DNA of 64,000 nucleotides from Methanosarcinales archaeon (GTDB lineage Archaea; Halobacteriota; UBA148; JAUWXC01): the NCBI GenBank assembly GCA_026016205.1, contig CP061209.1, forward strand, positions 634,330-698,329, written 5' to 3'. This document shows positions 27,343 to 62,373 of this stretch, piece by piece. How positions within the stretch are numbered: position 1 is the stretch's first letter; each line of letters starts with the position of its first letter. The translations under genes and the position numbers were made by a program. The notes beneath the pieces were generated by a model that did not search any database, was not told where the DNA came from, and saw only the letters and a list, made by a program, of their open reading frames with translations.

Positions 27343-27416
27343 TGGGGGCGGTAGGATTTGAACCCACGATCGGCTGGTCTGGAGCCAGCTGCCCTTCCGG
27401 ACTAGGCCACGCCCCC
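27343..27416 (-). tRNA. tRNA-Trp(CCA), no intron
   Basis: Reverse complement GGGGGCG TG GCCT AGTCCGGAA GGGC A GCTGG CTCCAGA CCAGC CGATC GTGGG TTCAAAT CCTAC CGCCCCC A. Confidence 0.9.
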
Positions 27417-27422
27417 ATAAGA

Positions 27423-27522
27423 TAGTCCCGGGCGGATTCGAACCGCCGTCGCGGGCTTTCTTCACAACCCTTAAAAAGGTTGTGCCAAAGGCCCGCAGGA
27501 TTGACCACTACCCTACGGGACT
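27423..27522 (-). tRNA. tRNA-Gln(UUG) with a canonical 27-nt intron (plus coordinates ~27458..27484)
   Basis: Reverse complement AGTCCCG TA GGGT..ATCC .. CGGGC CTTTGG[CACAACCTTTTTAAGGGTTGTGAAGAA]A GCCCG .. GGCGG TTCGAAT CCGCC CGGGACT A. The BHB is clean: central helix CTTT/GAAG, 3-nt bulges GGC and AAA, inner helix ACAACC/GGTTGT. Confidence 0.85.
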
Positions 27523-27544
27523 ATACTTCGTTTAAGCGAATGCA

Positions 27545-27618
27545 TGGGCCCGGCCGGATTCGAACCGGCGATCTCCGCCGTGTAAAGGCGATGTCATAAC
27601 CAACTAGACCACGGGCCC
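27545..27618 (-). tRNA. tRNA-Val(UAC)
   Basis: Near-identical body to the Val(CAC) gene at 10038; anticodon loop TTTACAC. Confidence 0.9.
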
Positions 27619-27752
27619 TTGCCCAAAGAGATGATATACGATTACTCATAAATCTTTTGGGTTTTATACCGGCAGAACAAAGTAAATTGTGGCAAGCGAG
27701 AGAAATGCCATTATAAGCAGGACTGCCACTATTCTCTCTTCTTTCTGCATCA

Positions 27753-27880
27753 TGGACCGGTCGGGATTTGAACCCGAGGCTTATAGGCGCAGTCAAAGCG
27801 CTCTCTACCAATAAGGATGTCATGCTCTTTCAGACCATGACATTTGCCAAGGTAGCGATCTACCCCTGATCTACCGGCCC
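27753..27880 (-). tRNA. tRNA-Ala(GGC) interrupted by two introns: 34 nt at 37/38 (27811..27844) and 22 nt at 45/46 (27781..27802)
   Basis: Reverse complement GGGCCGG TA GATC AGGGGTA GATC G CTACC TTGGCA[34 nt]T GGTAG AG[22 nt]GCC TCGGG TTCAAAT CCCGA CCGGTCC A. It has the G3:U70 Ala identity pair. The mature length is 72 nt, and both inserts show bulge(3)-helix(4)-bulge(3) geometry. Confidence 0.7.
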
Positions 27881-27988
27881 GAGTATATTCTTGAATGGCA
27901 AGATTTTACAATAAATCTATCGGTGAGGGGCTTTTTATATAAAGAAAACTTTAACTATATGCTGCCCTAACTCTGTGGCAATTCATCT

Positions 27989-28080
27989 GGGCCCGTAGCT
28001 TAGTCTGGTTGGAACTCGTAAGAGCAATATGCGCACGGCTGATAACCGTGAGGTCGGGCGTTCAAATCGCCCCGGGCCCA
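27989..28080 (+). tRNA. tRNA-Ile(GAU) with a 17-nt non-canonical intron in the D-arm (28014..28030)
   Basis: GGGCCCG TA GCTT AGTCTGGTTG GA[ACTCGTAAGAGCAATAT]GC G CACGG CTGATAA CCGTG AGGTC GGGCG TTCAAAT CGCCC CGGGCCC A. Removing the insert restores D-stem GCTT/GAGC. BHB: GTTG/CAAT helix, bulges GAA and ATG, inner CTC-GTAA-GAG hairpin. Confidence 0.7.
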
Positions 28081-28085
28081 CTATT

Positions 28086-28123
28086 TAGATAAAAAAATAA
28101 AAAAAAAGAAGGAAAAAAAGTAG
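28086..28123 (-). terminator. Oligo-T tract downstream of the MC1 gene (archaeal intrinsic terminator candidate)
   Basis: The reverse strand reads CTACTTTTTTTCCTTCTTTTTTTTTATTTTTTTATC immediately after the MC1 stop codon. Confidence 0.4.
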
Positions 28124-28432
28124 TTACTTCAAAACGTCAGATGGATTTCTTGATAGTTGGTTATATTTCAGGTGGCGAACGCCAACCTTCTTAACCTTTG
28201 GTTTCCAGACCGTTGATGGTAACCAGCTCGGTGCACCACTTGGAGCACTGACTTTCTCTCTCGAACCAGTAAATACATGAAGTCTTTTTGTACCCTTCTC
28301 TCTGAGGACTATTTTTGTCTTTCCTCTGCTTGCGCATTTTAGAGCAGCATCTCGTGGCTGAAAACCACTGAATGTTCCCAATTCTTTACCATTCTCTATC
28401 AAACCAAAATTCTTTTTAGCTCTGTTTGCCAT
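28124..28432 (-). CDS. Chromatin protein MC1
   Basis: FSGFQPRDAALKCASRG...IVLREKGTKRLHVFTG...APSWLPSTVWKPKVKK closely follows the Methanosarcina MC1 pattern. ATG at 28432 preferred over the TTG at 28447. Confidence 0.85.
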   Translation of the reverse strand: MANRAKKNFGLIENGKELGTFSGFQPRDAALKCASRGKTKIVLREKGTKRLHVFTGSREKVSAPSGAPSWLPSTVWKPKVKKVGVRHLKYNQLSRNPSDVLK

Positions 28433-28553
28433 ATTCAATCTCCCCAAACTTTACTCAGTAGATAAAGATATAATCCTCTCCTATTTCAACGTTGCGTTTT
28501 TTTCTTGATGCCAAACCCGTATATTCAACGTGATTTTGAATTCTGCAATCAAA

Positions 28554-29858
28554 TTACCATGTAAAAAGGCCAAAAAAGTACAAAATTAGTGGAAGCAGTA
28601 ATATGCCCATGGCATGCGTTCTTCTCACCTTAAGGTAAGGCGAGAGCATCCCAACAACCATAGCGATTGCGAAGACGATAAACCCAAACAAACCCGTGAA
28701 CAAAACAACCATTACTCCTAGACAAAGCAAAATTGCTGCACTGAGCTTTGAATAGTTCATGCGGACTAGAAGTTTAGATGCACGGTCACCTATAAAAATC
28801 GTGGCGAAGTAAGATAGAATTGAAACTCCTACAACGACCATCAAGAGAAGCACTATTAATGATATGCTCCATGCATTTGGCTCCATGACGCTTTTGATGG
28901 CAACCATGGCACCGCTGCGCGGTCGCTGAATAGTATATAGCGCGATTATGCCAAAAATTGCGTTCGCCGTGTTAACCCCGCTGACTGCGACTATAAACTC
29001 CCTTGAAGAACCTTCTCCTTTTTCCTTGACCAATAACCGAGTTACCACTGTCGCCACTGCAGGCGATACCCCGGGCAGCCATGCCACCATGGACCCAGCT
29101 AAACTTCCCGTGAATATGCCCCTTGTTACCCTTCGTTTTGACAGTTTAAATTTCGTCTTCACCTGTTTAGGAATCGTGGACTTGGTGACCAAGCTAATTA
29201 TGAGCATGCTTGCCCCAAACATTCCTGAGAGCAGTGGAAATAATATAGAAGGTTCGCCAATGGGTATTATAGGGCACATCAAGCCGCTTCTGGTGAAGGA
29301 AAAGATGCCCAGCATACCAGAGAGCAGAAACACCAGTGCAGCATATCCTTTGTATTTGAGCTTCGACTCCCAAGGGTCTATTCTCTCACCGCTCTCGGTC
29401 CCTATCATAATTAGTGCGATGGATAGCAAAATCCAGCCCATATATTGGTTGAGAATGGGATAGATATGCTTGAAGAGGATGCCGAGCGGTAGTATGAGTC
29501 CCAATGCTACTATCACCGAGCCGGCGCTGCCCAACGCAGATAATCTAATCGCTTCAATGCCTCTTCCCTCTAACAACAGCCTATGCCCTGGCAGGACCGC
29601 AAGCGCCGTCTCTGCCTCAGGTGCGCCAAGGAATATTGACGGGATGAAATCCAAAAAAGTGTGTGCTACCGCATTTGCTAGGATTATAATAATGATACAG
29701 ACCGGCGAAATGCCATGCTGGAGCAGCGCTGGAGAGAATGTGACGAGCAGTATTGCGACGTTGTTGACGTGAAGCCCTGGGATTAACCCGGTAATGATGC
29801 CCAGAGCGCATCCTACAAGGGCGGATGCTAACAAGAAATGCAACGCAATCTGTGGCAT
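28554..29858 (-). CDS. TctA-like (DUF112) integral membrane protein
   Basis: 434 aa with ~11-12 TM segments; the N-terminal ITGLIPGLHVNNVAILL is typical of the archaeal DUF112/TctA family. Confidence 0.65.
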   Translation of the reverse strand: MPQIALHFLLASALVGCALGIITGLIPGLHVNNVAILLVTFSPALLQHGISPVCIIIIILANAVAHTFLDFIPSIFLGAPEAETALAVLPGHRLLLEGRGIEAIRLSALGSAGSVIVALGLILPLGILFKHIYPILNQYMGWILLSIALIMIGTESGERIDPWESKLKYKGYAALVFLLSGMLGIFSFTRSGLMCPIIPIGEPSILFPLLSGMFGASMLIISLVTKSTIPKQVKTKFKLSKRRVTRGIFTGSLAGSMVAWLPGVSPAVATVVTRLLVKEKGEGSSREFIVAVSGVNTANAIFGIIALYTIQRPRSGAMVAIKSVMEPNAWSISLIVLLLMVVVGVSILSYFATIFIGDRASKLLVRMNYSKLSAAILLCLGVMVVLFTGLFGFIVFAIAMVVGMLSPYLKVRRTHAMGILLLPLILYFFGLFTW

Positions 29859-29891
29859 GAATCGTTTTCATTACACTTATAGATGAAAAAG

Positions 29892-31040
29892 TTACCTCAC
29901 TAAAACGTTCTTAATTCTTTCCAGCCCTTCTGATATGCGCGCCTGCGAGGTTGCATAGGATATCCGCACGTAATTGGCGCCAGATGGCCCGAATGCGCCG
30001 CCGGGAGTAACCGCGACATACGCTTCGTTCAGCAAGCGTTCTGCAACGCTCATTCCATCTCTATACTGGTCAACGTTCACGAACACATAGAACGCGCCCT
30101 TTGGTTTTACGCATTCAAATCCCATTGACTTAAGACCGTTTACCATAAGGTCTCTGCGCGCTCTAAACTCGCTCACCATCCCGGCAATGCAATCCTGCGC
30201 CCCTGTCAGCGCTGCTACCGCGCCATACTGCGCAAAGGATGTTGCACAGCTCGTAGAGTGCTGCTGTATCTTGAGCATGGCATCCAGGATCTCTGGCGGA
30301 GCGGTTGCGTAGCCCAGCCGCCAACCGGTCATCGCATATGCCTTGGAAAAACCATTGACCGTAATCGTTCTCTCATGCATACCATTGAAGGAGGCGATGC
30401 TGATGTGCGCTCCTTCATAAATGATTTTTTCGTATACCTCATCGGAGAGCACGAGTATGTCATGGTCTTTTGCGATATCTGCAATCATCTTGAGCGTGTT
30501 TTCGTCAAAAACTGCCCCGGTTGGATTGCCTGGCGTGTTTAGGATGATTAGTTTGGTTTTGTCAGTGATGAACTCCAAGAAGTTGTCTGGTATAAATCCT
30601 CTTTTCTCATCCGTTCTGACCCATACTGGCTTCGCACATGCAAATTTTACGCAGGACTCATATGAAACCCAGGCAGGGTCGAACAAGATTGCTTCGTCAC
30701 CCTCGTTGAGTATGGAAAGCGCGACTTCAAAAATCGCCTGCTTTGCCCCTGGCGTTACGATGATGTTGTCCACGGATGCGCTAATGCCGTTCTCCTTGAA
30801 TTTATTCGCAATCGCCTCTCTTAATTCGGGTATGCCGGCGCTCGGCGTGTAATGCGTTTTTCCCTCGTCCAGCGCCTTCTTCGCAGCATCCATGATGTGC
30901 TGCGGAGTGGCAAAATCGGGCTCGCCAACGCTGAAGCTGATGACATCCTTTCCAGAACGTTTTAACTTATTCGCCAAGTCTGATATTCTGAGCGTCGCAG
31001 ATTTTTCTATCCTGTTGACCCGTTCTGATGGCATGTTCAC
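29892..31040 (-). CDS. aspC: Aspartate/class I-II PLP-dependent aminotransferase
   Basis: FSVGEPDFATP, NTPGNPTG, and PLP-lysine context GFSKAYAMTGWRLGY. Confidence 0.85.
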   Translation of the reverse strand: MNMPSERVNRIEKSATLRISDLANKLKRSGKDVISFSVGEPDFATPQHIMDAAKKALDEGKTHYTPSAGIPELREAIANKFKENGISASVDNIIVTPGAKQAIFEVALSILNEGDEAILFDPAWVSYESCVKFACAKPVWVRTDEKRGFIPDNFLEFITDKTKLIILNTPGNPTGAVFDENTLKMIADIAKDHDILVLSDEVYEKIIYEGAHISIASFNGMHERTITVNGFSKAYAMTGWRLGYATAPPEILDAMLKIQQHSTSCATSFAQYGAVAALTGAQDCIAGMVSEFRARRDLMVNGLKSMGFECVKPKGAFYVFVNVDQYRDGMSVAERLLNEAYVAVTPGGAFGPSGANYVRISYATSQARISEGLERIKNVLVR

Positions 31041-31456
31041 TCACGCATTCGCTGCACCATCTTTACCGCTGATTCAACCGCCCGCTTCGCATAATCAATG
31101 CGCTCGTGTGCCTCCAGCCTGCTCATTCCAGGACCAGATATGCCCAGCGCAACGGGTTTCTCAAAATCCAGCGATAAATCTGTGATTTTTCTGGATGTTT
31201 GCTGCATGATGACTTCGTCGTGTTCTGTCGTGCCTTCAATAACGCAACCAAGAGCGACGATGGCATCGATATTCTTATCCTTGGCCAATTTCTTCACTGC
31301 CAGGGGCATATCATAAACGCCTGGTACGAGAATGGTTTGCACCACAGATGCACCGAGAAACGCAGCGTGCTCTTTCCCCAGTAATTCCATCTGATGCGTC
31401 AAATCTCTGTTGAATTCCGACACGACAAATCCAAGTCTGATTTTATCCATTTTCAA
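31037..31456 (-). CDS. ribH: 6,7-dimethyl-8-ribityllumazine synthase
   Basis: LGFVVSEFNRDLT, VPGVYDMPLAVKKL and ALGCVIEGTTEHDE. Confidence 0.88.
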   Translation of the reverse strand: MKMDKIRLGFVVSEFNRDLTHQMELLGKEHAAFLGASVVQTILVPGVYDMPLAVKKLAKDKNIDAIVALGCVIEGTTEHDEVIMQQTSRKITDLSLDFEKPVALGISGPGMSRLEAHERIDYAKRAVESAVKMVQRMRE

Positions 31457-31464
31457 TCCTCCTG

Positions 31465-31953
<489 letters not shown>

Positions 31954-31982
31954 TTAAGAGTTTCTTTCCAAAAATGAGATGA

Positions 31983-33107
31983 TTACTTCAGCGCATCTTT
32001 TGCAGCAGCCATGCCACCTTCTGCGTTAACACCGAGTTCAGACAGCGTGGACTCCAATGCCTCCAATGTAGTCAAAATCTCTTTTGTGGACACATTGCCC
32101 ATGTGACCTATCCTGAATATTTTATCTTTGAGATGCGCCTGCCCGCCTGCTATGAGCACTCCTCTTTTCTTCATGCCGCCGCGCAGCTGCTTATCGGTTA
32201 TGCCGTCAGGCATTTTTACTGCCGTAACCGTATTCGAGTACGCGCTGACATCGTTCAAACGCGGGAATAACTGCAGGTTTATTGCATTCATCGCCGTCCT
32301 GACTGCCTCCGCGCACTTCCTATGCCGCTCGATTCTTTCGTGCATGCCCTCTTCCTTCATCATACGAAGCGCTTCATGTAGTCCAAAGAACAGAGACACG
32401 GCTGGAGTATATGGCGTCTGCGCCAGCTCCTTTGCGGCATATTTTCGGTATGCCTGGAGGTTAAGATAGTATGGAGATTTTGCCTTCACACGCCCCCAAG
32501 CTTTTTCGCTGACAGCGAGAGCCGCTAACCCTGGAGGTGCGGCAAGACATTTCTGTGAGCCGACGATGGCAATGTCCACGCCCCATTTGTCCACTGGTAT
32601 ATCCACGCCGCCTATTGAGGAAACACCGTCCATGATGAACAAGGCATCGTACTTCTTGGCCAGCGCTCCAACCTCTTTAGCTGGGTTTAGCATGCCAACC
32701 GAAGTCTCGTTGTGGACCATGGTTATGATTGATGCGCCCTTCTCCAGCGCGCCCTCTACACCGCCTAGTTCTACAGGATTTCCCCAGTAATACTCCATGG
32801 GTATCGGATTTCCATACAGCGCGACGATTTCCTTGAAGCGCTCGCCGAATTTGCCGTTTACAATCGTAACCACATCGTCGCCATCTACAACGTTGCTGAC
32901 TGCTGCTTCCATTCCGGCAGTTCCAGAGCCGCTGAGCACGAAAACATCATTCCTTGTCTGGAAAACCTCTTTCAATATCGCGATACACTCCCCGTATACC
33001 TCCGCAAATTCTGGACTGCGGTGACTGATCATCGGCCTGGACATCGCCTTCAGTACCCTGGAATGCAAAAGCACGGGTCCCGGTATCATCAGCAGTTCTG
33101 AATTCAT
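31983..33107 (-). CDS. Class V PLP-dependent aminotransferase (AGXT / archaeal phosphoserine aminotransferase-like)
   Basis: LMIPGPV, HRSPEF, HNETSVG and SQKCLAAPPG. Start trimmed to MNSELLMIPGP. Confidence 0.8.
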   Translation of the reverse strand: MNSELLMIPGPVLLHSRVLKAMSRPMISHRSPEFAEVYGECIAILKEVFQTRNDVFVLSGSGTAGMEAAVSNVVDGDDVVTIVNGKFGERFKEIVALYGNPIPMEYYWGNPVELGGVEGALEKGASIITMVHNETSVGMLNPAKEVGALAKKYDALFIMDGVSSIGGVDIPVDKWGVDIAIVGSQKCLAAPPGLAALAVSEKAWGRVKAKSPYYLNLQAYRKYAAKELAQTPYTPAVSLFFGLHEALRMMKEEGMHERIERHRKCAEAVRTAMNAINLQLFPRLNDVSAYSNTVTAVKMPDGITDKQLRGGMKKRGVLIAGGQAHLKDKIFRIGHMGNVSTKEILTTLEALESTLSELGVNAEGGMAAAKDALK

Positions 33108-33182
33108 TGTTATGGAATGCGCCCGTAAAGATATAAAAAAGTAACTTATTAAGGCAAACATGAGAATATAAGATGAAAGCAG

Positions 33183-33641
33183 ATGAAAACGAAGTTCGAG
33201 TTCAAAAAGGATGCGTACTCTGCAAAGAAGGAGGCGTTTAAGAAGAGTATAAAGAAGTATGGTCTTGCATGGAAGAAGGGCAGCAGACCGTATACCGGTT
33301 CCTGGACGTCTAAGACCGAGAAATTGTATGCGGAGTGGGATGCCGAGAAAAATACGGGCTTGTTTATTTACGAAGGCAAGAATGCCAATTTTCTGAAGGA
33401 GTTAGGGTCGTTTGTCACATCCATCGGCGGGAAGATGACAAAGGGCTATGTGCCAAGCAAAGAGGATATCGATGCCATTGTAGAGCAAAGACTCAAGTAT
33501 GTAATCCATGAGGGACGATATCCAGTGGCATTAAGGGAAAAAAGCGCCCCAGAGAGTTACATCAAAGCAGCAGTAGCAGATTGGAAGAAACTCAAAGAGG
33601 GAATCAAGGCAGAAGTGGAGAAAGAGATGAAAGAGCGATAG
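33183..33641 (+). CDS. Hypothetical Lys-rich soluble protein
   Basis: 152-aa ORF; no motif recognised. Confidence 0.45.
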   Translation: MKTKFEFKKDAYSAKKEAFKKSIKKYGLAWKKGSRPYTGSWTSKTEKLYAEWDAEKNTGLFIYEGKNANFLKELGSFVTSIGGKMTKGYVPSKEDIDAIVEQRLKYVIHEGRYPVALREKSAPESYIKAAVADWKKLKEGIKAEVEKEMKER

Positions 33642-33683
33642 AAGGGCTTATCTAAGTAGTAGTGATAGATATAGAGGGAGATA

Positions 33684-34085
33684 GTGAGTGACATGCACAA
33701 GGGAAAAGTAGCCATTATTATGGGTTCTGAGTCTGATAGGAAGGTTGCCGAGGATGCCGTACGTGTGCTGGAAGAGCATGTCGTTGCGTATGACGTACAG
33801 GTCATCTCCGCGCACAGGAATCCTACTGCCCTGGATGAGTACATCAAAAAGTCAGATGTAGATGTTTTCATTGCCATTGCCGGGCTCTCCGCCGCACTTC
33901 CTGGCGCCATTGCTTCCAGAACCAAAAAGCCAGTGATAGGCGTGCCCGTTAACGTCAAGTTGGATGGCCTGGATGCGATGCTTTCGATGATGCAGATGCC
34001 TTCTGGCGTTCCAGTGGCGACCGTCGGCATCGATAACGGAAAGAATGCAGCCCACCTAGCACTTAGGATTCTGGGAAAAGTTTAG
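33684..34085 (+). CDS. purE: N5-carboxyaminoimidazole ribonucleotide mutase / AIR carboxylase catalytic subunit
   Basis: [27 protein letters not shown] and [10 protein letters not shown]. Confidence 0.9.
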
Positions 34086-34444
34086 TCTTTTTTCTCTGCG
34101 ACCTGCTCTAATATTATATCTGTGATTTTGTCGTTGTAACCGATTGGCTCACAGTAGATTATTTCAGCACTGTTAATGGTACTATGGCCCTCTTTGATGC
34201 CGAACGCTTTTGGGATAGTTTCCTTGGTATGTCGCCCGTGTGCGATGAACATTGGAACAACAAACACACGGTTACATTTGATGTTTTGAAGTATTTCTTT
34301 GATGGCCAGCATGTTGTGAAGGGAACATGCATATACATGGCTGAAGATGCCCAGTTCTTGTATGCGCGCGGCATGGTGCCGAACTACATCTTCACTCTCT
34401 CCGTCACTACTTCCATGCCCTACCAACACCAAAATATCGTTCAT
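34082..34444 (-). CDS. cbiX: Small sirohydrochlorin chelatase CbiX(S) (possibly the CfbA nickelochelatase in a methanogen)
   Basis: 120 aa; LVLVGHGSS and [12 protein letters not shown]. Confidence 0.8.
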
Positions 34445-34447
34445 GAT

Positions 34448-35713
34448 TTATTCCTTAAGGATGTCACGCATGATTTTGATTGCACAAAGCTCCCCACACA
34501 TGGAACATGCATCGCTGGATGTTTTTCGGCCGCGCCGAATCTTTCTCGCCTTCTCAGGGTCTATTGCAAGATTAAACTGTGCATCCCAGTCGAGGTTTTT
34601 GCGTGCGTGCGCCATCCTATCGTCCCATGTTTTTGCTCTGTCCTTCTGCCCATCCTTGGTTAAATCCGCGACATGCGCTGCAATCTTGGTTACTATGGTG
34701 CCCTCTTTAACATCCTCGATAGTTGGCAGGGCGAGATGTTCTGTTGGGGATACCATGCACAGGAAGTCTGCCCCATACATGCCTGCTACAGCTCCCCCAA
34801 TAGCACCTGTTATATGGTCATAACCTGGCCCTATATCAGTCACAAGTGGGCCTAACAGGTAAAGCGGGGCATAATGCGTTAGACGTTTCATCGCTATTAC
34901 GCTCGCTCCAACATCATCCAATGGAACATGCCCCGGCCCCTCTACAATCGTCTGCACACCTTTACTCCTTGCCCTGCACACAAGCTCGCCGAGCGTGACA
35001 ATCTCAGTAAACTCCGGTGCATCACTGGCATCCGAGATGCATCCAGGCCGCATGCCATCGCCGAGACTGATCGCAACATCATATTCTCTTGCGATTTCCA
35101 GCAGATAATCGTACTCTGCATAGAATGGATTCTCTTGTTCGTGCTGTGCCATCCAGACAACCATGAATGCGCCCCCTCTGGACACGACATCCAAGATGCG
35201 CCGTCTCTTTTTGAGGTGTTCTACAGCGCTTAACGTGACGCCGGCATGGATGGTCATAAAGTCGATGCCATCTGCTGCGTGCTTCCGAACGGCATTGAAC
35301 ATGTCATCAGAATTCATATCTGGGTTCTGTGCAGCTTGGTAAATGGGGACTGAGCCCACCGGCACGCTGACAGCATCGAGAATCCTTCTCCTGATGACGT
35401 TCAGATCGCCGCCAGTTGAAAGGTCCATGACCGCGTCTGCGCCATGTTTTGCCGCCACTAACGCCTTTTTTATCTCCTCTTCCATATCGACGAAATCGAT
35501 GGACGTGCCCACGTTAGTGTTGATTTTAGTGCGCACCAATTCGCCAATGCCAACGGGCATAACATCCCTGGTAGCGCTCTTCAAGATGGCTAATCGTCCA
35601 TCTGCAACCAATCTTCTAACTTTTTGGACGTCGATGCCTTCGGCTTGTGCAACTGCCTCCATTTCTGGCGTTATCTGTCCTCTACTGGCGGTTTCGATTA
35701 AGGTCATCGTCAT
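34448..35713 (-). CDS. thiC: Phosphomethylpyrimidine synthase
   Basis: VGTVPIYQA, TIHAGV, SRGG, GPGHVPL, and the C-terminal CSMCGELCA cluster motif. Confidence 0.92.
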
Positions 35714-35742
35714 ACCATTTATTTATGTGATATTAATCGCGA

Positions 35743-36420
35743 ATGATTTATCATATGGTCAATGTGCATAAAATTACTGGCTCACATGGGGCAAACGCCT
35801 ATCTGATTGATGCTGAGCATCCAATTTTAGTGGACGTTGGCGCACCCAACATGTCTGACGCGCTGAAAAAGTTTCTGAATCCAACTGATTTAGAGTACAT
35901 CATTCTAACACACTGCCATTATGACCATGCCCTCGGCGCTACCCAGCTGGCAAAACGGACAGGTGCAAGCATCGCAATCCATGAAGAAGACGCGAAGCTG
36001 CTTGGTGATGATTGTGCAACCGCCTCCGCCATCTTTGGAGCGCGTGCACCAAGCATAGAACCAGATATGTTGCTGAAGGGCGGGAAATCGCTTGATTTAG
36101 GTGATATCTCGCTTAGGATAATTCACACACCAGGGCATAGCCCGGGAAGCATCTGCCTTTATGGCTCCGGTCTTCTATTTTCCGGTGACACAATCTTCGT
36201 GGCGGGCGGCATCGGGCGTACGGACTTGGGGGGAGACGCACATGCATTGGTTGATTCAATTAAACTGCTGACAGCGCTAGACGTTGACATTCTCTACCCA
36301 GGACACGGAGACATCACAAATCAGAATGTTAATGCCCAGATCAGAGCATCACTTAAATATGCAAAGATCAATCGTAAAGCCTATAATTCAAAAGGTTTTT
36401 ATGCATTTTGTATAATTTGA
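35743..36420 (+). CDS. MBL-fold metallo-hydrolase
   Basis: THCHYDH, HTPGHSPGS and PGHG motifs. Confidence 0.8.
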   Translation: MIYHMVNVHKITGSHGANAYLIDAEHPILVDVGAPNMSDALKKFLNPTDLEYIILTHCHYDHALGATQLAKRTGASIAIHEEDAKLLGDDCATASAIFGARAPSIEPDMLLKGGKSLDLGDISLRIIHTPGHSPGSICLYGSGLLFSGDTIFVAGGIGRTDLGGDAHALVDSIKLLTALDVDILYPGHGDITNQNVNAQIRASLKYAKINRKAYNSKGFYAFCII

Positions 36421-36490
36421 TATAATCATTAACTGATATTACGTATGATTATAATATCTAGTCTAGTTATCTAGTAAAAAAAGGATGGAG
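36411..36490 (+). promoter_or_regulatory. Candidate promoter/operator region of the mrp operon
   Basis: AT-rich stretch with TATA-like tataatttgatataatc. Imperfect inverted repeat gatataatcat (36419-36429) / atgattataatatc (36445-36458). SD-like ggatggag lies 5 nt before the ATG at 36495. Confidence 0.3.
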
Positions 36491-36494
36491 TTAG

Positions 36495-37016
36495 ATGCGC
36501 TCGCTGAATTGGAATGAGAACATAGCCAGTTTCGCACTGACATTCATCATCTTATTCGCGCTCTGGGCAGCCTTGTCGACATTTTTTGATATTGTGCATT
36601 TATCCTTGGGCCTAATATGCTCTTTTCTCGTGGCATACGTATCTTATGACCTGCTGATACGGCCCGAGGGCACTAAACACGTTTTGGCAGTTATAAAAAC
36701 CGCTGTCAAATCTATTCCATATTCATTCTGGCTTTTAGCGCAAATCATCAAAGCCAATGTCGATGTGGTGATGATTATCCTCAACCCCAGATTGCCGATA
36801 TCCCCTGAAATTGTCAAGTTTGATTCGAAACTGCCGAACGATGTGGCACTCGCCACACTGGCTAACTCAATCACTCTGACCCCGGGGACGTTAACGCTTG
36901 ACATAGACGAGAAAAAGACATACTATGTTCACTGTCTGGCGAAACGGCATGGGGACAGTCTTCTTGAAGGAACAATGCAATCATATGTAGCACGCGTATT
37001 TGGAGGCAAAGAATGA
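36495..37016 (+). CDS. mrpE: Mrp-type cation/proton antiporter subunit E
   Basis: LANSITLTPGTLTLDI is the MnhE signature. Confidence 0.8.
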   Translation: MRSLNWNENIASFALTFIILFALWAALSTFFDIVHLSLGLICSFLVAYVSYDLLIRPEGTKHVLAVIKTAVKSIPYSFWLLAQIIKANVDVVMIILNPRLPISPEIVKFDSKLPNDVALATLANSITLTPGTLTLDIDEKKTYYVHCLAKRHGDSLLEGTMQSYVARVFGGKE

Positions 37017-37279
37017 TCGAACCATTTTTGCTCACAGCACTGCTGCTGGTTTTTGCATCAGTATTATGCCTCTATAGAACTGTTAAAGGGCCAACCGCAC
37101 CTGACAGGATTGTAGCCGTCAATGTGATAGCTACCTGTACGATAGTCGTACACGTTCTCATCGCCTTTATAGGCAATCAACCGATGTTCGTCGACATCGC
37201 CATGACGTATGCGCTCTTGAACTTCCTGGTCACGCTTGTCGCTGCTCGATATCTTGCCACAGGGAGTGTGTTTACATGA
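37013..37279 (+). CDS. mrpF: Mrp-type antiporter subunit F
   Basis: 88 aa, 3 TM; LYRTVKGPTAPDRIVA is typical of MnhF. Confidence 0.8.
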   Translation: MIEPFLLTALLLVFASVLCLYRTVKGPTAPDRIVAVNVIATCTIVVHVLIAFIGNQPMFVDIAMTYALLNFLVTLVAARYLATGSVFT

Positions 37280-37629
37280 GTGTTCTGTTAATTCTTTCAA
37301 CTATTTTCCTCCTCGCGGGGTCTTTCTTCTTCATCGTGGGCTCGATAGGTTTGAACAGGCTGCCAGATGTGTACACGAGATTGCATGCAACGACAAAATG
37401 CGATACTCTCGGGCAGGCGCTGGTGCTGCTTGGCGTAATATTTTATGATGGGGCGACGTTTACGAGCGTGAAGATTTTGCTTATCATTGTATTCGTCTTA
37501 GTAGCGAATCCTACGGCTGCGCATGCTCTGGCAAAAGGTGCATACTTACATGGTGTAAAGCCGTGCGATGTTACGAGTCTTGACATGTACAAAGAAGAGG
37601 CGAAGAGGATAAAGAGGCGATTAAAATGA
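37276..37629 (+). CDS. mrpG: Mrp-type antiporter subunit G
   Basis: GSIGLNRLPDVYTRLHATTKCDTLG is the MnhG signature. Confidence 0.85.
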   Translation: MSVLLILSTIFLLAGSFFFIVGSIGLNRLPDVYTRLHATTKCDTLGQALVLLGVIFYDGATFTSVKILLIIVFVLVANPTAAHALAKGAYLHGVKPCDVTSLDMYKEEAKRIKRRLK

Positions 37630-37871
37630 TTTGGTTGCTCAATATTGCACTTTTGATGCTTTTAGTTGCTACCGCCATTGCGGTAGTCGTTAATAAAGAC
37701 CTGCTCGCTGCAGCGATTACATTTTCTATCTATAGTTTTATCATGGCGATGCTATACACGCAGCTCAACGCTCCTGATGTGGGACTGACGGAGGCTGCTG
37801 TAGGGGCAGGAGCTACGACTGTTCTGTTTATAATAGCCATATCAAAGACGTCCAGGAGGGAAGAAGATTGA
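37626..37871 (+). CDS. DUF4040 / MbhD-like small membrane subunit (equivalent to part of the MrpA C-terminal region)
   Basis: 81 aa; YTQLNAPDVGLTEAAVGAG. Confidence 0.7.
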   Translation: MIWLLNIALLMLLVATAIAVVVNKDLLAAAITFSIYSFIMAMLYTQLNAPDVGLTEAAVGAGATTVLFIIAISKTSRREED

Positions 37872-38134
37872 AGCTTGCCCCCCTTATCGTGGTACTGATT
37901 ATCGGCGCAACGCTCGCCGTAGCGGTGGCAGGCATGCCAGCATTTGGCAGTTCAGATGCACCGGCATACACGCATGTCGCATCAAGGTATCTTGAAAAAG
38001 GCGTCGAGGAGACTGGTGTTGGCAATATAGTAACTGCCATTGTCGTATATTACAGGGGATATGATACATTTGGCGAGGTTACGGTCATATTTACTGCTGG
38101 AGCAGCGGTCATCGCGCTTCTCGGGAGGGAGTAA
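37868..38134 (+). CDS. MbhE-like small membrane subunit (N-terminal piece of MnhB)
   Basis: NIVTAIVVYYRGYDTFGEVTVIF motif. Confidence 0.7.
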   Translation: MKLAPLIVVLIIGATLAVAVAGMPAFGSSDAPAYTHVASRYLEKGVEETGVGNIVTAIVVYYRGYDTFGEVTVIFTAGAAVIALLGRE

Positions 38135-38135
38135 C

Positions 38136-38576
38136 TTGCCAGAGTTGTTCGAGGATGTAATCGTACGAACGATTGCAAGGCTGATGACACCATTCATACA
38201 GTTGTTTGCCCTCTACGTCCTCATGCACGGCCATGCTACACCAGGCGGAGGTTTTCAAGCGGGCGTGATGATGGCGGCCAGTTTTATATTAATTGCCATA
38301 GCACTCGGCTTGCAGGAGGCAAAGGACAGGGTCAAGCAGAAGGCGAGATTGCCCCTGGAAAGCTTCGGTCCTCTGAACTTTGTGGTAATAGGCATCATAT
38401 GCATGGCCTGCGGCGGCTACTATCTACAATATACGACAGTGCCGCTTTTGCCCTCTTTGCAGGCAGTAGGCGCGATCCTGATATCAGCAGTTGAGGTGGG
38501 CATTGGCGTTACGGTCATGGCGATGGTAACAACGATATTCTTCTCCATGGCGGGTGGTAAACATGATACCAGTTGA
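38136..38576 (+). CDS. mrpB: Mrp-type antiporter subunit B (MnhB domain)
   Basis: LMHGHATPGGGFQAGV motif. Start placed at the in-frame TTG (38136) right after the upstream stop, not at the track TTG (38040). Confidence 0.75.
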   Translation: MPELFEDVIVRTIARLMTPFIQLFALYVLMHGHATPGGGFQAGVMMAASFILIAIALGLQEAKDRVKQKARLPLESFGPLNFVVIGIICMACGGYYLQYTTVPLLPSLQAVGAILISAVEVGIGVTVMAMVTTIFFSMAGGKHDTS

Positions 38577-38940
38577 ATTTGAGTTTCTGCTCAGGCATTA
38601 TAACTACTGGACGTCTGTAATCCTTGTTATGATAGGGCTCTACACCATGATCGTGAAGAAGAATCTAATTAAAAAATTCATGGGACTAAACATCGTCGAG
38701 ACTGCCACATTTCTTTTTTACATCTCCATGGGTGATGTGGAAGGGGGGGTTGCACCCGTCATAGTACACGGCGAGCATGCCGCTGAGCACGTGGTATATG
38801 TGAATCCACTGCCATCCGTGCTGATACTCACGGCAATAGTCGTCGCCCTATCTACGACAGCGCTTGCACTTACATTGGCAATCAAAATATACGAAAAATA
38901 TGGAACGCTTAACTCGGAAAGAATTCTGGAGCTGATGTGA
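38554..38940 (+). CDS. mrpC: Mrp-type antiporter subunit C (NuoK-like)
   Basis: 128 aa, 3 TM; GLNIVETATFLFYI and LTAIVVALSTTALALTL. Confidence 0.8.
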   Translation: MVNMIPVEFEFLLRHYNYWTSVILVMIGLYTMIVKKNLIKKFMGLNIVETATFLFYISMGDVEGGVAPVIVHGEHAAEHVVYVNPLPSVLILTAIVVALSTTALALTLAIKIYEKYGTLNSERILELM

Positions 38941-40418
38941 TGAACGTATTATTCCATCTTCCCATCATCGTGATTTTGATACCGTTAACGGCTGCGTACC
39001 TCATGCCGTTAGTGGGACATAAATGGAAAAAATGGTGCAATTCCCTTGCAGTAGTCGCATTGGCTCTTTCTTTTGTGGCGTCACTCGTACTCGCGAGGCT
39101 TGTGCTGGTAAATGGACCCATGCACTATTATATGGCAGGATTTATGCCCCCCTGGGGTATTGAGCTGGTAGTGGATTATCTGGGCGCATACATGTGCGTC
39201 GTCATATCATTTATCACCCTACTAGTCGCATTGTACTCTAAGGAGTACATTACCAAAGAACTGTCAGAACAAAGAAGGCCCCAGTATTATACCCTGCTTT
39301 TGTTGTTAACCGGCTCTATGATGGGCGCCTCGATTACAGGAGACTTATTTAATTTGTTCGTTTGCTTTGAAATCTTATCAATATCATCTTATGCACTTGT
39401 GTCCATCAGCGGAGAGGGTAAAGCGCTCCTTGCAGGTTATAAATACCTGCTAATAGGCGCTATTGCATCCAGCTTCCTACTGCTTGGCATAGGGCACCTG
39501 TATATATCTACCGGCACCCTGAATATGGCGGATATGTTCGTAAGGCTGCCACCTCTCTACAGTTCCTGGACCGTTCTCGCTGCGCTGGCTCTGCTAATCG
39601 TGGGCCTCAGCATAAAAACCGCGTTGTTCCCATTGCACGTATGGCTGCCGGATGCGTATACTAATGCGCCGTGTTCTGTGCCAGTCCTATCAACCCTGGT
39701 TATAAAGGTGGGAGCCGTAGCAATCATCCGGCTCCTATTTAACATATTCCAGCCATCATTTGTCATAAATACAATCCCAATGACGGCTGCCCTCTCATAT
39801 ATAGCAGCAATTGCAATAATTGTGGCCTCGTTATTCGCGATATCTCAAACAGACATCAAAAGGATGTTGGCATACTCGTCTGTGTGCCACGTGGCATACG
39901 TGATACTCGGCATTGGAGTAGGCACGGAACTTGGCTTGACAGGAGGGATGCTGCATATTATCAATCACGCTGTCACAAAAGGATGTTTATTCTTTTGTGC
40001 AGGTGCGATTATCTACAAGACTGGAACAAGGAATATCAGGGAGTTTGGCGGTCTGGGGAGAAAGATGCCGGTTACGATGGGGGCGTTCACCTTGGCTGCG
40101 CTCTCGATGGTAGGCATTCCTCCGACGAATGGATTTATGAGCAAGTTCTACATCGCACTTGCTGCTATGACCGCAGGAAGACCTGAGTGTGCAATCGTTA
40201 TATTATTGAGCAGTTTGCTGAATGCCATATACTTTATAAGGGTGATAAACATCACATACTTTGGCATTCCAGAAGAGGAGATCGAGATTGATGAAGCCCC
40301 GCCCACGATGTTGTATCCAATAGTAATGTTGGCTGCATGCTGCCTGATATTGGGCTTTGGTGTAGAGTTGCCGCTCACGATACTGAGACCTGCGGCTCAA
40401 GTGCTGTTAGGAGTCTAG
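38937..40418 (+). CDS. mrpD: Antiporter-like subunit MrpD/NuoN-M family, copy 1
   Basis: 493 aa, ~14 TM; FPLHVWLPDAY and KRMLAYSSV motifs. Confidence 0.85.
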   Translation: MMNVLFHLPIIVILIPLTAAYLMPLVGHKWKKWCNSLAVVALALSFVASLVLARLVLVNGPMHYYMAGFMPPWGIELVVDYLGAYMCVVISFITLLVALYSKEYITKELSEQRRPQYYTLLLLLTGSMMGASITGDLFNLFVCFEILSISSYALVSISGEGKALLAGYKYLLIGAIASSFLLLGIGHLYISTGTLNMADMFVRLPPLYSSWTVLAALALLIVGLSIKTALFPLHVWLPDAYTNAPCSVPVLSTLVIKVGAVAIIRLLFNIFQPSFVINTIPMTAALSYIAAIAIIVASLFAISQTDIKRMLAYSSVCHVAYVILGIGVGTELGLTGGMLHIINHAVTKGCLFFCAGAIIYKTGTRNIREFGGLGRKMPVTMGAFTLAALSMVGIPPTNGFMSKFYIALAAMTAGRPECAIVILLSSLLNAIYFIRVINITYFGIPEEEIEIDEAPPTMLYPIVMLAACCLILGFGVELPLTILRPAAQVLLGV

Positions 40419-62288: not shown

Positions 62289-62373
62289 CGCCGCCAACAG
62301 GACTCGAACCTGTGACAACCTGGTCTCTGCATCTTTTAACAGCCAGGTACTCTACCAACTGAGTTATGGCGGC
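62289..62373 (-). tRNA. tRNA-Asn(GUU) with a 12-nt intron at 37/38
   Basis: Reverse complement GCCGCCA TA ACTC AGTTGGTA GAGT A CCTGG CTGTTA[AAAGATGCAGAG]A CCAGG TTGTC ACAGG TTCGAGT CCTGT TGGCGGC G. Central helix CTGT/GCAG; bulges TAA and AGA. Confidence 0.8.

Follow-up and report, generated by a model that had tools for sequence, protein, structure and literature searches.

A tRNA-Ala(GGC) gene with two predicted bulge-helix-bulge introns, one at position 45/46, in an uncultured 'Methanocellales archaeon' lineage

The window analysed here is a stretch of 64,000 nucleotides (nt) from an archaeon filed as Methanosarcinales (assembly GCA_026016205.1, contig CP061209.1, positions 634,330 to 698,329 of the forward strand), and it contains a tRNA-Ala(GGC) gene interrupted by two introns at window positions 27753-27880 on the minus strand. 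We hold with good confidence that this is a functional gene, that its 128-nt precursor carries two bulge-helix-bulge (BHB) introns, and that these would be processed by the ordinary alpha'2-type splicing endonuclease (EndA) of an uncultured 'Methanocellales archaeon' lineage. An earlier note on this DNA had described such a two-intron gene; Rfam RF00005, the spliced product and intronless orthologues all bear it out, and the 128-nt sequence quoted there is a letter-for-letter reading of the minus strand. The structure of the gene, its boundaries, the geometry of the motifs, their conservation and covariation, and the type of EndA in a sister genome are direct observations. The parts of the gene are as follows.

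27753..27880, minus strand: whole tRNA-Ala(GGC) gene, 128 nt, with no encoded CCA (Rfam RF00005; ARAGORN on the spliced form)
27845..27880, minus strand: exon 1, gene positions 1-36, identical to intronless orthologues; acceptor 5' strand, D arm, anticodon stem 5' strand and loop bases U32 U33 G34 G35 C36 A37
27811..27844, minus strand: intron 1, 34 nt, at 37/38, AAUGUCAUGGUCUGAAAGAGCAUGACAUCCUUAU (RF00005, spliced product, motif)
27803..27810, minus strand: exon 2, gene positions 71-78; U38, GGUAG (anticodon stem 3' strand), A44 G45
27781..27802, minus strand: intron 2, 22 nt, at 45/46, AGCGCUUUGACUGCGCCUAUAA (RF00005, spliced product, motif, covariation)
27753..27780, minus strand: exon 3, gene positions 101-128; G46 C47 C48, T arm, acceptor 3' strand with U70, and discriminator A73

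The tRNA model RF00005 matches the interrupted gene from end to end (model positions 1-71) at 44.9 bits, compared with a gathering score of 29 (E 2.5e-6, with the whole window as search space). Its alignment replaces two model positions in the anticodon loop with a 36-nt block and opens a 23-nt insertion in the variable region, so the covariance model copes with the exon layout and places both inserts where the earlier note had put them. Deleting gene positions 37-70 (27844-27811) and 79-100 (27802-27781) leaves 72 nt, which ARAGORN reads as a tRNA-Ala(GGC) of standard form; as had been claimed, it has the G3:U70 pair and AGGCC as its variable loop. The tRNA-Ala identity set is present: a GGGCCGG/CCGGUCC acceptor stem, G3 opposite U70, anticodon GGC and A73. 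An intronless twin (L058), identical to the spliced product, scores 65.6 bits under RF00005 vs 44.9 for the interrupted gene. Run on the unspliced window, ARAGORN misses the gene, and its intron option yields an incorrect tRNA-Pro(tgg) that has a long arm and a 36-nt intron.

Intronless orthologues fix the exon boundaries. Scanning one genome per species with the exon-1 20-mer GGTAGATCGCTACCTTGGCA gave at least 119 loci, from Methanosarcinales, Methanotrichales, Methanomicrobiales, Methanocellales, anaerobic methanotrophic archaea (ANME), some DPANN and one bacterium (L097, whose match we put down to chance). Among the matches listed, 108 of 119 loci have no insert at either site and read TTGGCA-TGGTAGAG-GCC, i.e., continuing TGGTAGAGGCC, while six carry a 37/38 intron alone and two carry both introns; in at least 15 species-representative genomes the uninterrupted gene is identical to the 72-nt product. 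A shift of either intron by a single base would change the product, and the boundaries are therefore unique and fixed to the nucleotide. The junctions proposed earlier, 27845/27810 and 27803/27780, agree with them.

The canonical rule for archaeal tRNA introns is a helix H of four positions between two 3-nt bulges, with each cut past the second bulge base and with H including the first two anticodon bases (PMC4090602). In both introns, the cuts expected from the BHB motif coincide with the boundaries set by the intronless orthologues. The motif elements are listed here, with pair probabilities from folding where available.

27847..27850, minus strand: BHB-1 helix H, exon strand UUGG (nt 32-35), pairing with 27813-27816
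27813..27816, minus strand: BHB-1 helix H, intron strand CCUU
27817..27843, minus strand: BHB-1 inner hairpin h', AUGUCAUG/CAUGACAU (8 bp) with loop GUCUGAAAGAG, pair probabilities 0.85-1.0
27805..27808, minus strand: BHB-2 helix H, exon strand GUAG (nt 40-43, anticodon-stem 3' strand), pairing with 27783-27786
27783..27786, minus strand: BHB-2 helix H, intron strand CUAU (CUAC in L002 and L214)
27787..27801, minus strand: BHB-2 inner hairpin h', GCGC/GCGC with loop UUUGACU, pair probability 0.97-0.99

Intron 2 has the four-pair helix H of the strict hBHBh' motif (GUAG/CUAU, 4/4 pairs), bulges AG/A and AA/G (the slash marks the cut) and a 4-bp inner helix, GCGC/GCGC, which upholds the earlier claim of a 22-nt insert at the non-canonical 45/46 position with bulge(3)-helix(4)-bulge(3) geometry. 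A random insert would show this pairing in H and the inner helix with p ~6e-4, assuming uniform base composition. Four variants of the intron are available (window, L002, L196/L199 and L214), with hairpins GCGC/GCGC, GCGU/GCGC, GCACGG/UCGUGC and UUGUA/UGCAA, respectively. Across them, all 36 of 36 pair cells are paired and H has 4/4 pairs in each, whereas slid registers are at most 53% paired. Three hairpin pairs show compensatory changes on both sides, and the two substitutions between the window and L002 both keep the pairing.

Intron 1, for which a 34-nt insert at 37/38 with 3-4-3 geometry and two U.U in the central helix had been claimed, is also as described: H is UUGG/CCUU (two G-C plus two U.U), the bulges are CA/A and AU/U, and both bulges are flanked, by the 5-bp anticodon stem (h) on one side and the 8-bp inner helix (h') on the other. 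The corresponding chance for a random insert of uniform base composition is p ~1e-4. The intron is conserved at 33-34 of 34 positions in L016, L032, L099 and L195, with flanks about 55-88% identical; in L099 the figures are 33/34 and 55-59%. Only three substitutions are known in relatives, every one producing a U.G wobble in the inner helix, and the covariation evidence is weaker than for intron 2. Among Rfam families, only tRNA came near threshold over 27650-28000, with no box C/D or other known RNA in intron 1. Unrelated 37/38 introns (33 nt, 18 nt) occur in tRNA-Ala(GGC) genes with the same exon-1 20-mer in L098, L114 and L127 (ANME-2/Methanosarcinales metagenome-assembled genomes, MAGs) and L107 (Nanohaloarchaea), so this gene has gained or retained different canonical introns from one lineage to another.

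Other accounts of the inserts were rejected. Group I and group II self-splicing introns are ruled out by size (22 and 34 nt), and an assembly artefact is excluded because the same or nearly the same gene occurs in several independent assemblies (L001, L071, L195 and L002/L016). A 100-aa open reading frame (ORF) at 27521-27823 on the minus strand, which overlaps the tRNA-Ala gene, was treated as spurious.

The earlier note had not pointed out that G40-G43, the exon strand of helix H in BHB-2, also form the 3' strand of the anticodon stem, and that the two motifs are therefore mutually exclusive. Folding of the full precursor gives a minimum free energy (MFE) of -53.3 kcal/mol, with -52.6 when BHB-1 is enforced and -52.0 when BHB-2 is enforced, i.e., all within 1.3. 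Once intron 1 is removed, the MFE structure itself holds the BHB-2 helix H, 5' bulge and hairpin (probability ~0.6), because the D-region GGGGUAG can hold the 5' strand of the anticodon stem and GGC pairs with G46-C48. Helix H is present in that structure for the window, L002 and L199 sequences, which represent three lineages. These models suggest that intron 1 is removed first.

The path we propose is as follows. The precursor would be transcribed as 128 nt and both introns removed by protein-dependent splicing. In BHB-1, the anticodon stem would serve as outer helix while nt 32-35 pair with CCUU and the 8-bp intron hairpin closes the motif; in BHB-2, G40-G43 would quit their normal stem partner to pair with the intron's CUAU, with the 4-bp intron hairpin on the other side. 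The motifs are mutually exclusive, so the introns would be taken out one by one from alternative conformers: probably intron 1 first, after which BHB-2 would form in the predicted MFE structure with the anticodon GGC pairing G46-C48 as outer helix. Cleavage would fall to the lineage's own EndA, predicted to be a tandem-repeat alpha'2-type homodimer, followed by joining by an RNA ligase and later addition of CCA.

The endonuclease was sought with the M. jannaschii EndA sequence (verified against 1A79) by tblastn over the window and all loci, and an alpha'2 EndA found in L014 was the query for the homologue search that yielded P0183. This 348-aa protein (L227 3001-4047) lies on JASEEY010000003 of GCA_030018435.1, the same MAG that carries the two-intron gene of L002 on JASEEY010000010. 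Its Pfam domains run N-C-N-C (PF02778, PF01974, PF02778, PF01974), the alignment to its best PDB relatives, 1R0V/2GJW (the alpha'2 enzymes of A. fulgidus, E 4e-39), covers its whole length, and the catalytic-repeat motifs RVY, HS.YLV and SVRK are conserved. We aligned P0183 with P0215 and six Methanosarcinales/Methanotrichaceae homologues, and against these seven it has no private insertion, including none of the L1/L2/L3-type specificity loop. P0183 is thus an alpha'2-type EndA by sequence, with a homodimeric state predicted. P0215 (L228 1501-2547), from run DRR463595, is 82% identical to P0183 and has the same neighbouring genes; the two EndA loci are 83.8% identical in nucleotides, the same divergence as between the window and L016. 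Checking the EndA type therefore found the tandem-repeat alpha'2 form in the sister MAG and in run DRR463595, though not in the window itself.

The earlier note took the two introns to imply a splicing endonuclease of relaxed specificity, and the strongest rival explanation is of this kind: a standard alpha'2 EndA could not process the gene, and broadened specificity would be needed, via a changed EndA or a second enzyme or cofactor. In its favour, intron 1 has two U.U in helix H and the outer helix of intron 2 is weak, while alpha4 and alpha'2 enzymes are reported to cut the canonical BHB only, the A. fulgidus EndA failing on a relaxed D-loop intron (PMC4033280, PMC5829648). The window is also intron-rich, with five introns in ten tRNA genes. 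In addition, P0183 and P0215 read LIHSKYLVH at the catalytic His where the six Methanosarcinales/Methanotrichaceae homologues and A. fulgidus have PHSEYLV, placing a Lys (HSKYLV) where other homologues have Glu. This Glu-to-Lys change next to the predicted active site in an intron-rich lineage is a lead only.

However, both introns keep two 3-nt bulges exactly four positions apart, which is the feature measured by the dimeric enzyme, and P0183 lacks an L1/L2/L3-type insertion and is colinear both with the EndAs of Methanosarcinales and with the A. fulgidus catalytic repeat. Cultured Methanocellales and Methanosarcinales, reported to have alpha'2 enzymes, also have predicted non-canonical and double introns (PMC8450103, PMC5829648), and a U.U-containing H is found in 37/38 introns of ANME-2/Methanosarcinales genomes too (L098, L114, L127). 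With 3-4-3 motifs at both introns and an ordinary alpha'2 EndA without private insertion in the sister MAG, relaxed specificity is not supported, and we regard a broadened enzyme as unlikely.

Several points nonetheless weigh against the reading that we prefer. In intron 1, just two pairs of helix H are Watson-Crick, rather than the four standard pairs of the strict hBHBh' motif, which alpha'2 enzymes are said to need (PMC4033280, PMC5829648), and this helix is not predicted in the MFE structure of the isolated anticodon arm. For BHB-2, the outer helix is either a single G39:C47 pair or an alternative GGC(34-36)/GCC(46-48) helix that shortens the 3' bulge to 2 nt. BHB-2 competes with the 5-bp anticodon stem, and when the D stem and other cloverleaf arms are fixed, its conformer is ~9 kcal/mol worse than the cloverleaf. 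tblastn with the M. jannaschii query found no EndA in the window. P0215 is probably the window organism's enzyme, an assignment made by sample, synteny and divergence only, and there may be a second endonuclease gene elsewhere in the genome. Among the matches listed, each MAG has one tRNA-Ala copy with the exon-1 20-mer, the MAGs being incomplete. Lastly, the act of splicing, its order and the ligase are things that we infer from sequence.

A second alternative is that the 22-nt insert is retained in the mature RNA as a class II-like long variable arm, with only the 37/38 intron removed. ARAGORN does accept the 94-nt form as a tRNA-Ala(ggc) with a long extra arm, and the GCGC/GCGC hairpin is stable. 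But in all four variants CUAU/CUAC is complementary to a strand of the anticodon stem, a complementarity that serves no purpose in a variable arm and would make a mature tRNA less stable, and the bulges place the cuts so as to restore exactly the universal AGGCC loop. The insert is also missing, with no other change, in the close relative L032 and (among the matches listed) 108 other genomes. We know of no long-arm tRNA-Ala, and consider this alternative very improbable.

Upstream of the gene is an A/T-rich element that we read directly from the sequence.

27901..27921, minus strand: A/T-rich element GATAGATTTATTGTAAAATCT, a candidate archaeal TATA/BRE promoter

It lies 21-41 nt upstream of the mature 5' end, and the same 21 bases occur in L002, where the flank is only 70% identical overall. 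A decaying or silent pseudogene with junk inserts, GCC/GCU being decoded by another tRNA, could draw on the modest unspliced covariance-model score (44.9 bits) and on the genome being known as MAG fragments only, so that another copy is possible, but it is barely credible: the exons are unchanged relative to functional orthologues despite flanks that are now only 55-80% identical, pairing constrains how the introns evolve, the A/T-rich element upstream is conserved, at least two species-level lineages and several strains share the structure, and neither MAG has a second exon-1 20-mer copy among the matches listed.

The MAGs among the window's relatives at this locus are labelled 'Methanocellales archaeon' in public records. 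Window positions 27550-39858 are 100% identical to a Logan contig from run DRR463595, and the other relatives are given below with their nucleotide identity to the window.

L071: MAG CSMAG_2511, 94-98%
L195: metagenome contig, a strain of the window's clade, 94-98%
L032: CSMAG_2674, ~84%
L002/L016: MAG Yes46-10, ~83%
L099: MAG-838, ~69%

Between the window and L016 the two-intron gene is identical at 126 of 128 positions while its flanks are 70-81% identical, and the introns appear to be under purifying selection. L002 and L032 are sisters (89-90% identity), the window clade branches outside them and L099 is farther out. Intron 1 is present in the window clade, L002, L032 and L099, and would be the older of the two, arising before the L099 split. 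The window clade and L002 also have intron 2, which is precisely absent in L032 and missing from L099 as well. The simplest history would have it gained past the L099 split and then precisely lost in L032, with transfer as the alternative. Synteny around ThrRS homologues was useful for the closest relative only: L008 and L009 end short of the tRNA cluster, and L004 and L006 (ThrRS 71-72% identical) are not syntenic with the window locus. In metagenomes, the pattern GGTAGAGN{10,40}GCCTCGGG gave 97 matches, 90 of which had a gap of 21 and were ordinary tRNAs matched via the D-loop GGTAGAG; four metagenome loci were informative (five including L195).

How unusual is such a gene? A tRNAscan-SE 2.0 survey of 144 euryarchaeal genomes lists 520 canonical introns, 25 non-canonical introns and seven two-intron genes (PMC8450103 Table S7). 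The rarity expected by the earlier note is borne out, since those seven are among 6970 euryarchaeal tRNA genes (~0.1%) and none is from Methanocellales (PMC8450103 Table S7). Its view that a find in a euryarchaeon is unusual holds as regards rarity; it is not unprecedented, as non-canonical introns in Methanocellales and two-intron genes in Methanosarcinales are listed (PMC8450103). Specifically, three Methanocellales genomes have 13 canonical and four non-canonical introns (17 introns in 154 genes) with no two-intron gene, and Methanosarcinales have 11 non-canonical introns and three two-intron genes (PMC8450103 Table S7). Reviews assign single canonical introns to euryarchaeal organisms with alpha4 or alpha'2 enzymes, and name Crenarchaeota, Nanoarchaeum, M. 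kandleri, M. thermautotrophicus, Korarchaeum and ARMAN as hosts of multiple-intron tRNAs (PMC4090602, PMC4033280, PMC5829648). The two-intron tRNA gene is therefore rare and new for Methanocellales, yet of a known kind.

The best-known systems of this kind are in Thermoproteales, where a 37/38 intron also occurs together with non-canonical BHB introns (e.g., Pyrobaculum islandicum tRNA-Pro(UGG) at 25/26, 37/38 and 56/57, with 45/46 a listed position), splice sites also lie in 3-nt bulges, and one intron may need removal before the next motif forms (PMC4090602, PMC8450103). However, these are Crenarchaeota with an (alpha-beta)2 EndA that has a specific loop, and many of their motifs are relaxed (hBH, HBh'), whereas the window gene belongs to a Methanocellales-labelled euryarchaeon with a loopless alpha'2 EndA and has 3-4-3 spacing in both motifs. 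Methanopyrus kandleri pre-tRNA-Glu(UUC) is euryarchaeal, combines a canonical with a D-loop intron and is served by an EndA without the specificity loop; there, however, the enzyme is an (alpha-beta)2 heterotetramer and the second intron a relaxed HBh' that is poorly cut in vitro (PMC5829648). In the window gene the second intron is instead at 45/46 and has two 3-nt bulges.

Cultured Methanocellales, Methanosarcinales and Methanomassiliicoccales are of the same broad group and have non-canonical or two-intron genes predicted, but Table S7 states neither positions nor isotypes, so they can be compared by counts alone (PMC8450103). Methanocellales and Methanosarcinales fall in the group reported with alpha'2 EndA only (PMC5829648). 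Intron density differs: five introns in ten tRNA genes in the window vs 17 in 154 genes in cultured Methanocellales (PMC8450103).

The closest counterparts of intron 2 outside the lineage are 45/46 introns in tRNA-Ala(GGC) genes of DPANN archaea (L196/L199 and L214). These genes have near-identical exons and the same insertion point, and their introns share a first base A, an H strand CUAY, AA before the 3' cut and, in L196/L199, the 22-nt length. They differ in that their inner hairpins are unrelated in sequence to the window's, that the window's intron 1 is absent, and that other introns are present: a D-loop intron in L196, and D-loop, 33/34 and 12-nt 37/38 introns in L214. Common descent, transfer or convergence could each account for the shared 45/46 introns.

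Both DPANN genes merit description. L196 5550-5820 and L199 330-424 (metagenome Ga0315295) contain a tRNA-Ala(GGC) with a 22-nt 45/46 intron, AGCACGGAAATCGTGCCTATAA, that resembles window intron 2 at both ends. The host is an aenigmarchaeon (FtsZ 90% identical to that of an Aenigmarchaeota MAG), and L196 has an extra 59-nt D-loop intron (H CAGC/GCUG) that is absent in L199, a presence/absence polymorphism within one sample. In L214 (ERZ1292623, Hainich groundwater 0.1 um, contig 63657, minus strand), the tRNA-Ala(GGC) gene has four inserts, each with BHB geometry, in a 239-nt precursor that ends at position 1902 of the reverse complement.

D-loop insert: 80 nt, H UCAG/UUGA
33/34 insert: 48 nt, H UACC/GGUA
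37/38 insert: 12 nt, H UUGG/CCAA
45/46 insert: 23 nt, H GUAG/CUAC

ARAGORN reads the 76-nt spliced product as tRNA-Ala(GGC). Surveys give a maximum of three introns per archaeal tRNA gene (PMC4033280; PMC8450103 Table S7), and in the literature we found no report of an archaeal four-intron tRNA gene.

Elsewhere in the window there are further tRNA introns: its ten tRNA genes hold five introns in total, two of them at non-canonical positions. The following genes are those relevant here.

27343-27416: tRNA-Trp(CCA), no intron
27423-27522, minus strand: tRNA-Gln(UUG), canonical 27-nt intron, H CUUU/GAAG
27989-28080, plus strand: tRNA-Ile(GAU), 17-nt D-stem intron between the G-A and G-C of the 3' strand
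62289-62373, minus strand: tRNA-Asn(GUU), canonical 12-nt mini-intron, H CUGU/GCAG, almost no inner helix

The D-stem intron of tRNA-Ile(GAU) has H GUUG/CAAU and a CUC-GUAA-GAG hairpin, and it leads ARAGORN to label the gene tRNA-Ala(agc) in error. L015 and L058 have the same intron with a covarying hairpin (CUUC/GAAG), and it is therefore older than the tRNA-Ala introns. The lineage thus already handles an intron at a non-canonical position, and this one may be among the Methanocellales non-canonical introns counted in PMC8450103 Table S7.

In the sister MAG, L002 9179-9328 (minus strand) has a tRNA-Gln(UUG) with a 77-nt intron (an 80-base Rfam insert block) and L016 1711-1954 (plus strand) a tRNA-Ile(GAU) with a ~150-nt 37/38 intron. 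Their ends are the same (ACAACCTTTTAAAAAAGGTTGATCA ... TGATCAACC..TGCAGGTTGT), which makes them a homologous intron in two different tRNAs, a situation that resembles the intron transposition described for Thermoproteales. A third version of it is in the tRNA-Ile of L032 (minus strand, position 2919 of the reverse complement). The window's tRNA-Gln retains just a 27-nt remnant, and its tRNA-Ile lacks a 37/38 intron.

A bolder reading is that a lineage with a plain alpha'2 enzyme is amid a burst of tRNA-intron gain, with BHB introns moving between genes and even organisms; we think this distinctly doubtful. It is consistent with one intron sequence being in both tRNA-Gln and tRNA-Ile of the sister MAG, and with the tRNA-Ala(GGC) exons of the window and the Aenigmarchaeota differing by a single base; recombination between such near-identical genes in a symbiont and its host could have passed on the 45/46 intron, whose length, first base, H strand and AA bulge are the same in both. 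Intron 1 is conserved as strictly as the exons, and under this reading the excised RNA or the unspliced precursor would have a function of its own. If introns do move in this way, the rule that endonuclease architecture limits tRNA gene disruption would need revision.

Whatever its history, a two-intron gene processed by an ordinary alpha'2 EndA would be a useful system. Reviews tie multiple and non-canonical introns to special-loop endonucleases and alpha'2 organisms to single canonical introns, so the gene is a natural test, and it comes with exact boundaries, covariation, close relatives with and without intron 2, and a cognate EndA sequence. Two splice motifs competing for one anticodon-stem strand also make it a simple substrate for studying how RNA refolding and the order of splicing are handled. 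There is a practical point too: since ARAGORN overlooks this gene and gives its neighbour the wrong label, the tRNA sets of such MAGs will look incomplete unless intron-aware tools are used.

The genes neighbouring the tRNA cluster are ThrRS, TatA, Usp, MC1, TctA and riboflavin genes, with an A1AO ATPase operon farther off. In a more distant 'Methanocellales archaeon' MAG (ThrRS 71% identical), ThrRS has as neighbours a gene for cytochrome c maturation and one for a giant multihaem cytochrome, called at 2945 aa (L006 9838-13842, L007 9838-11895), which is unusual for a lineage filed under methanogens. Finally, a 29-codon ORF (MMQKEERIVAVLLIMAFLSLATIYFVLPV) at window 27663-27752 (minus strand) has its start on the final base of the tRNA-Ala gene. 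In L099, L015, L058 and L082 the corresponding position encodes an intact protein of at least ~100 aa, whose N-terminal membrane segment the ORF matches. The version in the window clade, L016 and L032 is cut short and is either a gene remnant or a small membrane peptide.

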